This document shows positions 42,816-50,753 of a DNA stretch of 57,533 nucleotides, one piece after another. The notes beneath the pieces are model-generated. The model made no database searches and was not told the origin of the DNA. It saw only the letters and a list, made by a program, of their open reading frames with translations. Source of the stretch: a virus (taxonomy: Duplodnaviria > Caudoviricetes); the IMG/VR virus record IMGVR_UViG_3300044724_006087, positions 1 through 57,533 of that record; one strand, 5' to 3'. Made by a program: the position numbers and the translations under genes. The stretch's first letter is position 1; every line of letters starts with the position of its first letter.

Positions 42816-45800
42816 ATGGGAAATCCTTTAAAAATTAAAGAAACAGTTGGTGGTACCTTTCTTGGTTTACAAGAAATGCAAACCACTGAGATGGACTATG
42901 CCGTCCATCAGATTCTAACTGAGTTCTCAACTTCACTAACCGGATCAGGTACTATCAATATAAATGGTGATGGTACATCAATGGGATCCTTTTCGGACAC
43001 CACAAGAACAGGATCAGTAGGCGATCACCCAGTCGACTCTACTGCATTCTCAACATCGACTTATACACTTAAGCAAAATTTAGAATCGGTCGCAGAAACA
43101 TCGATGATCAACCCATTGTTTCTTAATGACAGTGGTTATGCTGCAGAGCATAGTAATAACCTGAATAGTACTCTAATAAGTAGAGCATTATCTAACCTTG
43201 TATCCAACGGCCTTGGATCATATTATCTTTCTGAATCAAACCCCAACACAAGCCTTTATTCAGATAGTGGATATTCTATTTTAGATACTAACAAAGCAGG
43301 TACAACCACATTTAAGTTATGGAGAAAAACAACCGGTGTTTCTGCACCTTCTACTGTTCGTACAGCACAAATTTATAACAACAGTAGTATACAAGAAATG
43401 TCTGATGCAGACATCAAAACATTAGCAGCAAGACTACGTAACCAAATTGTAGCAACTGGAATAGGCCAGTATAAACTATCTGCATCAAATCCAGCTGGTG
43501 CTGGCGAGACATGGATCCAAGTTGGATCAACAGTTACAGATACTAGAAACACAGTATCACAACAAACATACAGTGCAACCTATGAAGGCGTGTTTAATAA
43601 AACATATGCTGGATTATATGAAGGCGTATACAATAAACAATACTTAGCTCAGTATGAAGGCTCATTTGATAAAAATTATACTAAAACTTACCTAGGACAA
43701 TACGAAGCAGTATATCAAAAAGCATATGTTGGTCAATATGGAACAACATTTATTGGCCATTACAATAAACAATACGAAGGTGTTTTTAATAAGCAATATG
43801 AAGGAGCTTTTGAAGGAGTATACACTGGAGTATATGTAAAACAATATCAAGGACAGTATGAAGGAAATTATTTAAAATCATACTTAGGACAGTATGGTCA
43901 ACAATTTGAAGGATCTTTTGATAAACAATATGAAGGGGTCTATGAAGGATATTTTAACGCAGTATATTCAAGACAATTTACAGGTGCTTATACAAAAACA
44001 TACCTAGGTCAATATGAAGGAACATTTGAAGGTGCTTTCAATAAACAATACGAAGGAGTTTTTGAAGGTTACTATAACAAAACATATGAAGGCGTTTATA
44101 CTGGAACATATGTAAAAACTTACTTAGGTGAATATCAAAAAGAATATTCTGGTGAGTATGTAAAAACATATACTGGTGTATATGTAAAACAATATGTTGG
44201 TCAATATGAGGACGTATACCTTAAAACTTATCTTGGCCAATATGATAACGTATATGAAGGTTCTTTTGATAAACAATATGAAGGTGTTTATACAGGACAG
44301 TATACAAAAACATACGTAGGTCAATATACAGGTCAATATACCAAATCATATGTAGGTCAATATGAAGGTCAGTTCGAAGGTGCTTTTGATAAACAATACG
44401 AAGGAATTTACGAAGGATACTATAATAAAGCATATGAAGGAAACTTCTTAGGTCAATACACTAAAGCATATGAAGGTTCTTTTACAAAACAATTTGAAGG
44501 TGCGTTTGAAGGAGTATATGCAGGAGTATATGTCAAACAATATATTGGCCAATACGAAGATGTATATTTAAAAACTTACGTTGGACAATATGGTAGACAA
44601 TTTGAAGGTGCTTTCGATAAACAATACGAAGGATCTTTTGAAGGTTACTATAACAAAACATATGAAGGAATTTATGTAGGCGTATATACAAAACAGTATA
44701 TGGGATTATATACTGGAACTTTCTTAGGACAATATGATAATATCTATGAAGGAACATTTGATAAAGCATACTTAGGAAATTATACTAAAACATATACAGG
44801 ACAATACAGTAGACAATTTGAAGGGGTCTTTACTAAACAGTACGAAGGCAACTATGTAAAGAGTTATGATGGTCAATATGAAGGATTGTTTACAGGTGAC
44901 TTTAGTGGTACTGCAGCATTTACAGGAGTGTATGCAGGAAACTACTCAGGAACATATACAAAAAATTATATAAAAACATACGCTGGATCATATGAAGGAA
45001 CATATGATGGTTCAAGAACCTACACAGGTCAATATGCTGCACAATACCAGAAAGCATATATTGGAAACTGGACAAAGACTTATCTAGGTCAGTACACAAA
45101 ACAATGGACCGGAACAAGAACTTATACAGGACAATACTCTCAAAATTTTGATAAAATTTATCTTGGTATAAACTACACAAGACAATACCTTAAACAATAT
45201 GCTGGCGAAAGAACCTACAATGCTCAATACACTGGCCAATATACAAAAACATATACCGGTGTTTATACTAAATCATATGTAGGTCAATACAGTCAACAGT
45301 TTGAAGGTGCTTTCAATAAACAGTACGAAGGAGTATTTGAAGGCTATTATACAAAAAATTATGAAGGAGTATATCTAGGAAATTACACCAAAGCATATGT
45401 TGGTCAATATGACAGACTGTTTATTAAAACATATATTGGAACGTATCAACAAGCGTATACTGGTAACTATACAAGACATTACCTAAAAGCATACACAGGA
45501 ATTTATTTAAGAAATTTCTTAAAACAATATGTTGGTCAATATACAAAACATTATACTAAAGCATATCAAAAAGCATATCAGAAACAGTGGACAGGTGTTT
45601 ATGAAAGAATCTATTCTGGCCAATATGCAACTAACTACTTAAAGGCATATCAGAAAGCATGGGTAGGTCAATATGACAGAGTATGGACTGGCGTATACAA
45701 TACAAACTATGCTAAGCAATATACTGGTAACTATGATAATCAATTTAGTGGAACCTATACTACAAACTACACTAAACAATATTCTACAAACTACTTACAA

Positions 45801-50753: not shown

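Follow-up and report, generated by a model that had tools for sequence, protein, structure and literature searches.

The window analysed here is a stretch of 57,533 nucleotides (nt) from a virus of the Caudoviricetes (record IMGVR_UViG_3300044724_006087), and it carries a gene of 2645 codons whose product consists mostly of tetrapeptide units beginning with Tyr, Phe or Trp. We found that the order of these units in the first half of the repeats (the left arm) is mirrored in the second half (the right arm), on the two sides of a short non-repeat centre. The reading that we consider probable is that the gene encodes a very long and thin phage fibre, in which about 1137 residues would run out to a variable tip and back again, pairing with themselves as an antiparallel beta ribbon. 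Judged from the sequence, the fold-back appears well supported and the beta-ribbon nature moderately supported. Beyond these, we infer a hydrogen-bonded two-stranded ribbon, a locked register, zippering from the tip to the anchor, and a role as fibre or adhesin. The original prediction, made from the letters alone, had already proposed an out-and-back chain with its arms in register, and this proposal is now supported by the mirror pattern, the relatives, matched insertions and deletions (indels), the topology of the family and strand prediction. The parts of the gene are as follows (aa, amino acids).

42816..50753, + strand: whole gene of the putative fold-back fibre protein, 2645 codons plus stop
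42816..43568, + strand: N-terminal anchor domain (N-domain), aa 1-251, non-repetitive, three homologous modules
43569..46979, + strand: left (outgoing) arm, aa 252-1388, 281 [Y/F/W]xxx units
44901..45221, + strand: left bulge zone, aa 696-802, with the 6-residue units FSGTAA, YDGSRT, WTGTRT and YAGERT (units 111, 119, 127 and 134)
45612..46058, + strand: left-arm tandem duplication, period 240 nt (20 units), units ~169-201, 82% identity
46980..47282, + strand: tip at the symmetry centre, aa 1389-1489, 101 non-repeat residues, among them 12 Pro and 19 Gly
47283..50693, + strand: right (returning) arm, aa 1490-2626, ~280 units
48219..48698, + strand: right-arm tandem duplication, period 240 nt (20 units), units ~79-111, 77% identity
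49023..49349, + strand: right bulge zone, aa 2070-2178, with the 6-residue units FAGSRT, FEGTRT, WAGSRT and YVGGQS (units 145, 152, 160 and 169)
50694..50753, + strand: C-terminal strand (...TENISTIKLWLRVA) plus stop, the 19 last residues, predicted to return to the anchor and to complete its module 3

The tetrapeptide build described in the original prediction is borne out by the counts. Aromatic residues are spaced by exactly 4 residues 526 times, the next most frequent gaps being 1 and 3 (33 times each), and position 1 is Y, F or W in 551 of 551 four-residue units. At position 3 of these 551 units we found G 263 times, K 160 times, T 49 times and R 41 times. In addition, each bulge zone contains one five-residue unit (YLGIN, unit 131 of the left zone; YVSVN, unit 157 of the right zone). 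Both arms have the claimed length of 1137 aa, and Pro and Cys are completely absent from them. Furthermore, the composition is mirrored as had been described, with acidic outer zones and inner zones rich in Thr and Asn: D+E amounts to 11.5%/10.5% in the outer zones of the two arms versus 3.1%/1.8% in the inner zones, and T+N amounts to 27.7%/29.7% in the inner zones. The whole protein has 11 His per 2645 aa and no HxH motif.

Mirror order and proposed pairing of the units

The units of xxTN type are numbers 273, 270, 267, 264, 261, 254, 247, 240, 233, 230, 223, 212, 207, 205, 200, 195, 189, 187, 182, 180, 175 and 169 in the left arm, and numbers 6, 9, 12, 15, 18, 25, 32, 39, 46, 49, 56, 67, 72, 74, 79, 84, 90, 92, 97, 99, 104 and 110 in the right arm. 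Read outward from the tip, both lists give the same spacing series that had been noticed earlier (3,3,3,3,7,7,7,7,3,7,11,5,2,5,5,6,2,5,2,5,6), with a lenient definition of the class, which admits YTAN and YTSN in the left arm and YSTT and YTIN in the right arm but neither the other xxTT units nor right unit 116 (YTTN). Beyond this series, both arms have 34 units before the first 6-residue bulge (YAGERT at left unit 134, FAGSRT at right unit 145). Four bulges occur in each arm, 6/6, 7/7 and 7/8 units apart, and about 111 units are left to each end, in agreement with the earlier account. The three GxRT bulges pair left to right at kL+kR=279. Furthermore, the 20-unit tandem duplication in the left arm (~169-201) faces the 20-unit duplication in the right arm (~79-111).

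The mirror was also measured with a test free of any such definition, in which each unit was coded as xxGx or non-xxGx and the reversed left arm was compared with the right arm. The agreement was 0.904 over 280 units at a single ungapped offset. The remaining mirror offsets had a mean of 0.499 (standard deviation 0.041, maximum 0.62), and the best direct (non-mirror) offset reached 0.69. When the units were shuffled, a check that had been suggested from the start, none of 300 shuffles matched the observed agreement (maximum 0.62), including shuffling restricted to 6-unit blocks. In addition, the residue sum i+j of the paired units is constant in 272 of 283 pairs and at most 2 residues off in 283 of 283; therefore, the bulges and the two 5-residue units exactly offset each other. 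The DNA was said to be no inverted repeat, and we indeed found 0 inverted pairs of at least 30 nt in the gene. Mirror identity at the level of residues is uninformative, because Tyr dominates. Overall, the observation of mirrored arms is confirmed.

The mirror is one of unit class and of complementarity between facing units. The mutual information between facing positions was 0.877 for L3-R3 (maximum of shifted controls 0.266), 0.869 for L2-R2 (control maximum 0.446) and 0.764 for L4-R4 of the adjacent unit (control maximum 0.450), and all three top couplings are compatible with one antiparallel register, i+j = constant. At the mirror register, position 3 is paired G:G in 118 of 270 cases and G:K in just 6 (0.2x expectation), and Thr-Asn units meet Lys or Arg units (T:K 17, K:T 17, T:R 8). 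The L:G pair is enriched 7.5x in the table of mirror-register pairs. Furthermore, some pairs of units recur in both directions, namely YLKQ/YGTN, FEGA/Y[LIV]GQ, F[DN]KQ/YTKT and YEGV/YTGQ. The favoured register sets Tyr against position 3 of the partner unit and pairs x2 with x2 and x4 with x4. An alternative register, shifted by 2 residues (Gly:Gly, Tyr:Tyr), accounts for 5 of the 6 strongest couplings. Both registers fit, and the residue register would thus be fixed to within two residues. Column covariation across homologues over the basal 53 units was uninformative, the pattern being near-invariant there and three relatives being mis-registered by 1-3 units under one global offset.

Full-length relatives and matched length changes

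Relatives were collected by scanning IMG/VR and metagenomes with the N-domain, which gave 37 loci. Among them were ten distinct full-length proteins of 2093-3134 aa, each on its own contig, and three more copies identical to one of the ten. All ten had a single mirror peak of 0.67-0.89 (background means 0.45-0.49, background maxima 0.57-0.67), and the mirror centre lay at most 2-4 aa from the midpoint of the insert. The arm length ranged from ~870 to ~1390 aa, and the two arms were near-equal in 10 of 10 relatives; arms of unrelated length, a result that the original prediction had named as contrary to it, were not what we found. In the best register of the 10 relatives, left unit 0 faces the last unit of the right arm, with a deviation of 0-3 units. 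The outer segments comprise 112/112 units in five relatives, 54/54 in four and 54/52 in one (L005), and the inner segments co-vary between the arms (147/146, 131/130 and 141/143 units).

Length changes were compared with the closest relative (L015; N-domain 93% identical, arms 75-90%). A block of 32 aa at 1009-1040 is matched by 32 aa at 1828-1859, a block of 20 aa at 1057-1076 by 20 aa at 1796-1815, and blocks of 8+4+4 aa at 1256-1299 by 16 aa at 1577-1592. All arm indels of at least 4 aa are matched at mirror positions in this way, with totals of 68/68. An exception to such matching is the more divergent L017, with net indels of 36 aa in one arm and 48 aa in the other; at ~50% identity its alignment is ambiguous. 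In two further loci the gene ends early within the left arm and the contig continues (L009, open reading frame (ORF) from 10001, 654 aa; L022, ORF from 3382, 277 aa). Such early stops may come from a frameshift or an assembly error, or the genes may truly be truncated.

Anchor, proposed ribbon and tip

The protein belongs to a family defined by an N-domain of ~250 aa and a C-terminal strand with an L[WY]xR[TV]A-type end (the 'PLKIK...LWxRTA' family). An N-domain HMMER scan found 293 library representatives at an expect value (E) of at most 1e-3, 40 of them at E<=1e-30; the family thus numbers hundreds of proteins from aquatic T4-like phages, and it lacks annotation. The C-terminal ending L[WY]xR[TV]A is kept in 82 of 152 family proteins examined, the shortest of 159 aa and the longest of 3347 aa. 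Essentially no repeats (at most 1 aromatic pair at 4-residue spacing) occur in at least three members, which are 291-296 aa long and have the same two ends; therefore, the repeats together with the tip form an insert that separates the N-domain from the C-terminal strand. An AlphaFold2 model of a 513-aa member, built on an alignment of 51 sequences, placed residues 1-250 and the last ~25 residues in one domain with a predicted local distance difference test score (pLDDT) above 90; its residues equivalent to the C-terminal strand are built into the anchor at pLDDT 91-98. A long strand (234-250) exits the domain and another long strand (482-511) comes back. As the N-domain and the C-terminal strand form one domain, the two ends of the insert must meet.

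The anchor consists of three homologous modules of ~80-90 aa each (inter-module hhalign probability 97.6%, 97.9% and 99.5%), each of them beta-beta-helix-beta-beta-beta, and module 3 is completed by the C-terminal strand. By eye, each module in the window sequence closes with a beta hairpin of the pattern ...DTxx-loop-TxxLWxRxx, with loops of 17, 2 and ~2370 aa in modules 1, 2 and 3, respectively. In fold comparison, the anchor matched beta-prism structures over 112-122 residues: the C-terminal domain of Mp2Ba1 (8b6v, Z 7.0), a Photorhabdus MACPF protein (2qp2, Z 6.8), the MABP domain of MVB12B (3tow, Z 5.9) and the P2 domain of perforin-2 (6sb1, Z 5.5). The anchor is like these prisms in having three internal repeats, and the likeness concerns the anchor only, not the ribbon. 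The Z scores of 5.5-7.0 are middling and the sequence identity is 8-12%, so that a beta-prism kinship of the modelled anchor is suggestive.

Searches for named relatives were otherwise negative. Foldseek of the anchor model against the PDB gave no match at E<=0.001, and the family profile against PDB sequences gave 0 matches at E<=1. Pfam gave 0 families for the whole 2645-aa protein, and PHROGs gave 0 matches for the N-domain and 3 homologues. An N-domain word-index search among proteins of 1454-4629 aa and a megablast of the gene against phages gave no match, and the ESM Atlas returned only unnamed viral clusters (0.86). By tblastn with the whole protein and the N-domain in 50,697 phage records, the sole relative was Phage C48C1 (OQ984149.1), which has no host entry. 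A lectin-like central domain considered in one larger family member was dropped; Pfam on six larger members returned 0 families.

The topology of the anchor bears on a rival explanation, in which the complementary arms pair between molecules, as swapped dimers or head-to-tail polymers. The mirror pattern alone cannot separate intramolecular from intermolecular antiparallel pairing. However, the N-domain and the C-terminal strand make up one confidently modelled domain and are contiguous in the repeat-free members, and the best register is fixed at the base of the arms (0-3 units off in the 10 relatives), as a closed hairpin predicts. We consider pairing between molecules very improbable.

A single-sequence AlphaFold2 model of the centre (aa 1241-1633) showed both arms as continuous strands (2-142 and 278-392 of the model), with pLDDT 65-88, a predicted template modelling score (pTM) of 0.54 and strands of up to 23 residues. 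As this is a model of a monomer, the two arm strands in it can only hydrogen-bond to each other. A complex prediction with three copies of the centre scored 0.00 with an uncertain partner fold, which counts neither way on oligomerisation. Foldseek of the centre model against the PDB found nothing at E<=0.001; the nearest rows, all non-significant (E 0.04-0.4, template modelling score (TM) below 0.1), were an ice-binding protein, curli CsgA and FapC.

These nearest rows are beta solenoids, and they speak for a second rival, namely that the arms fold separately, for example as solenoids, and that their mirror order comes from symmetric functional zoning or from chance. The mirrored composition zones alone could indeed have a functional cause. 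However, zoning does not explain a unit agreement that is lost on shuffling inside 6-unit blocks, the couplings fit a single antiparallel register, and the matched indels would be unexplained. Furthermore, strands as long as 23 residues are unlike solenoid rungs, and the likeness to solenoid repeats has E of at least 0.04 and TM below 0.1, with the mirror coupling arguing against a solenoid. Separately folded arms seem to us extremely improbable.

The tip is the most divergent part of the protein: against the tip of L015, 28 of 95 aligned residues are identical (29%). No receptor-binding family was detected in it by a Pfam scan and a tip search, and a tip-only search against longer proteins found no homologue outside the family, which is weak evidence. 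Because it lies at the far end and evolves fastest, the tip is likely, from sequence divergence, to be the site of host contact, and it is a candidate determinant of host range.

For the fold-back fibre that we favour, these results suggest the following architecture. In a single-chain anchor of ~275 aa, the hairpin loop of module 3 would have expanded to ~2370 residues. The chain would exit the anchor, run as a 1137-residue [Y/F/W]-x-(G/K/R/T)-x strand to a Pro/Gly tip of ~100 aa, travel 1137 residues back in antiparallel direction, and re-enter the anchor as its final strand. The aperiodic order of the units would set the register, with xxGx opposite xxGx and xxTN opposite xxK/Rx, and the four matched 6-residue bulges would serve as further register marks. 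The unit pattern might thus act as a bar code that prevents out-of-register pairing of a low-complexity repeat. The favoured register would yield one Tyr/Gly face and one polar face. Zippering would have to start at the tip, since the left arm, synthesised before the right one, is without a partner until the latter emerges; it would then proceed toward the base, and the anchor could be finished only by a correctly paired chain. Duplications and deletions would alter the length and would last where both arms carry a matching change. The anchor may sit on the baseplate or be attached to a different fibre, and specificity would reside in the tip. At full extension, an arm of 1137 residues would measure 375-398 nm, a computed upper limit, and twist or coiling would shorten the ribbon below this value.

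Several observations weigh against this reading. First, units that face each other in the mirror register are no more alike in their exact residues than at other offsets (0.70-0.71 identical positions out of 3 versus at most 0.83 elsewhere). The original prediction spoke of a 'protein palindrome', and this description stands for unit class and complementarity (mirror agreement 0.904) and fails for identical units; because unit identity is not elevated, the protein is not a literal palindrome. Second, the bulge modules are also alike in direct order between the arms, and hence part of the agreement of the landmarks comes from duplication. Third, L004, the identical L025 and L032 (of the same length) have 7 units (28 aa) fewer than L003 in the right arm alone. 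These proteins are near-identical, with 2121 aa in L003 and 2093 aa in L004, L025 and L032, and the difference lies in the period-7 region; the unmatched indel is either a tolerated loop-out or register slip, or an artefact of repeat assembly. Fourth, the outer units of L005 are unequal (54/52), and in several relatives the sum of paired units drifts by 4-8 residues under ungapped alignment. Fifth, the Gly mirror is not significant in distant family members (z 1.8-3.7); the code may be specific to a subfamily, or the unit parser may be unsuited to those proteins. Sixth, the pLDDT is below 40 for the tip in the centre model and below 50 for the repeats of the 513-aa model, and the centre model was judged at the level of secondary structure and pLDDT. 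Finally, we know of no precedent for a lone two-stranded ribbon hundreds of nanometres long.

In a third rival explanation, the fold-back is real and several chains are bundled in one fibre; three hairpins, for example, could build a six-stranded needle with the Tyr/Gly faces inward, as in the tip of the T4 long tail fibre. A Tyr at every fourth residue on one face of the ribbon would favour burial, and a lone ribbon of such length would seem mechanically fragile. Phage fibres are typically trimeric, and the accessible part of PMC12143355 describes tail fibres in this way. Against the bundle, the single-chain anchor with three internal repeats already gives a pseudo-threefold body, leaving no obvious need to trimerise, and there are no HxH metal sites. 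We regard the bundle as rather unlikely.

If the fold-back fibre is true, it would be a long fibre made from a single self-zipped chain, instead of a trimeric helix, spiral, collagen or coiled coil, and its length would be set by the count of 4-residue units. It would also offer a natural test of how the pairing strands of a beta sheet choose their register (a standing question for protein design and amyloid biology), a protein case of the compensatory evolution familiar from RNA stems, and a design template for length-programmable nanofilaments. For phages of bacteria in the dilute ocean, it may explain how hosts are found. A stronger formulation can be put forward tentatively: the protein might be a counterpart of a nucleic-acid stem, in which the two arms of one chain, ~1137 residues each, are paired with each other by a unit code (Gly:Gly, Thr-Asn:Lys/Arg, x2:x2, x4:x4), forming a free-standing beta ribbon of two strands and up to ~0.4 micrometre, with a length that evolves by compensating duplications, an anchor whose completion needs zippering, and a larger host-search volume for an ocean phage.

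Known fibres and the gene neighbourhood

The T4 gp37 needle (PDB 2XGF) is said to have been described by Bartual et al. in 2010 with an out-and-back topology. It is an interwoven trimer with His-x-His iron sites, and each pass of its chain takes roughly a hundred residues. The window protein is like this needle in that the chain would go to a distal receptor-binding tip and back, that both ends would be proximal, and that the gene lies in a fibre module of T4-like type. Unlike the needle, it has no HxH, a 4-residue aromatic repeat, arms ~10x longer, and a single-chain anchor of three modules. No sequence similarity to gp37 or to annotated fibre families was found by Pfam or by the family profile against PDB sequences (0 at E<=1). 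The out-and-back course with a tip at the turn is a functional resemblance, not membership; the needle is the nearest functional analogue, and membership fails on HxH and on sequence. The accessible part of PMC6957217 places seven iron sites along the gp37 needle.

Among other systems, the protein may be compared with designed sheets, solved repeats and named fibre classes. The OspA-based 'peptide self-assembly mimics' are single-layer beta sheets with cross-strand aromatic ladders and no hydrophobic core. The predicted ribbon resembles them in its extended antiparallel strands, its lack of a conventional core and its regular aromatics on one face. Unlike these mimics, which are short and many-stranded with globular caps, it would be two-stranded, more than 1000 residues long and of sequence-coded register. 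A collagen-like Gly-X-Y fibre was rejected, as the period is 4 (526 aromatic gaps) and Gly takes position 3 in no more than 263 of the 551 units. None of the sixteen classes of tail fibre that the accessible part of PMC12143355 names is like this architecture. The tentaclins, as far as the accessible part of PMC10743442 describes them, are unrelated. Furthermore, we found no published description of this fold-back tyrosine-repeat architecture in the tail-fibre, repeat and hairpin literature, at the level of listings and abstracts. The fibre type appears to be absent from the solved structures, annotated families and papers covered by these searches.

The protein of Phage C48C1 (WJE88074.1 in OQ984149.1, Kyanoviridae; 3347 aa) is annotated only as hypothetical. 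It has the same N-domain (31% identity, E 6e-9), and it shares a C-terminal ...LYVRVA, [Y/F]xxx repeats and downstream GT8-like and LtfC-like genes. It differs in several globular inserts between short repeat runs, in 8-residue YxRxRxSx variants and in a Gly mirror that is not significant (z 2.2). The inserts suggest branched or multi-tip versions of the architecture. This member (L001:8221-18264) also has a near-exact internal duplication of ~70 aa.

The window has an estimated completeness of 32% by CheckV, a length of 57.5 kb and a G+C content of ~34%. Its genes match T4-type baseplate and fibre proteins, namely a hub/lysozyme, wedge subunits, a fibre ending in Peptidase_S74 and a protein that carries the GP38 adhesin domain. 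No cultured phage has a wedge protein more than 39% identical to the one encoded here, for which the top matches are phiM12-like phages of Sinorhizobium and Caulobacter Cr30. The source thus appears, by gene content, to be an uncultured T4-like myovirus with the giant gene inside its baseplate and fibre module. The features around the gene are listed below.

39244..42810, + strand: upstream neighbour, 1188 aa, with [Y/F/W]xxx repeats and, at the C-terminal end, a GP38 adhesin domain (Pfam GP38, E 8.8e-13)
42753..42760, + strand: T4-type late-promoter-like motif TATAAATA, 56 nt before the ATG, within the 3' end of the upstream gene
50814..53539, + strand: downstream cassette of five ORFs, namely a 178-aa protein, a 290-aa GT8-like glycosyltransferase, a 237-aa protein, a 109-aa protein and a 109-aa LtfC-like protein of fibre assembly

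In related loci, the gene order is conserved: a DUF4815 protein, the S74 fibre, a 110-aa protein, the GP38-type repeat protein and the giant gene are followed by the 178-aa protein, the GT8-like transferase, the 237-aa and 109-aa proteins and the LtfC-like protein. The downstream half of this order is also kept around distant family members; the GT8-like, 237-aa and LtfC-like genes lie 3' of the gene in L001, L012 and L013. The fibre-module location given in the original prediction therefore holds, with fibre and adhesin genes on one side, fibre-assembly genes on the other, and their order conserved.

This neighbourhood bears on a fourth explanation, in which the fold-back ribbon is real and serves as an assembly ruler, a scaffold or a decoration, not as an adhesive virion fibre. 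In its favour, no receptor-binding family was found in the tip. However, the gene stands between fibre/adhesin genes and fibre-assembly genes in conserved order, and the tip evolves fastest, as expected for a site of host contact. We consider such a non-fibre role improbable, and the gene context points to a virion appendage.

The GT8-like ORF of the downstream cassette was matched by Pfam Glyco_transf_8 at E 3.4e-6. The GT8 family includes glycogenin, which glucosylates tyrosine. Therefore, the Tyr-rich fibre is a candidate target of the GT8-like enzyme.

The gene had also been called late-promoted. The motif TATAAATA is found 56 nt 5' of the start; its count in the window (9 observed versus 12.2 expected, no enrichment) is not above chance. 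Eight of the nine motifs are on the + strand (2214, 3878, 14715, 27676, 34922, 42753, 50764 and 53177), and these copies lie mostly just 5' of ORF starts, as for T4-type late promoters.

The 1188-aa repeat/GP38 gene lies directly 5' of the giant gene in related loci too. In its product, tetrapeptides flank a non-repeat centre rich in Pro and Gly, and poly-Gly stretches occur in the GP38 end. This protein may be a second fold-back protein. Further upstream, a giant structural protein of 2306 aa (27934-34854, + strand; DUF4815, E 1.4e-49; phrog_358, E 6e-281, function unknown) sits between a gp8-like wedge gene and the fibre genes.

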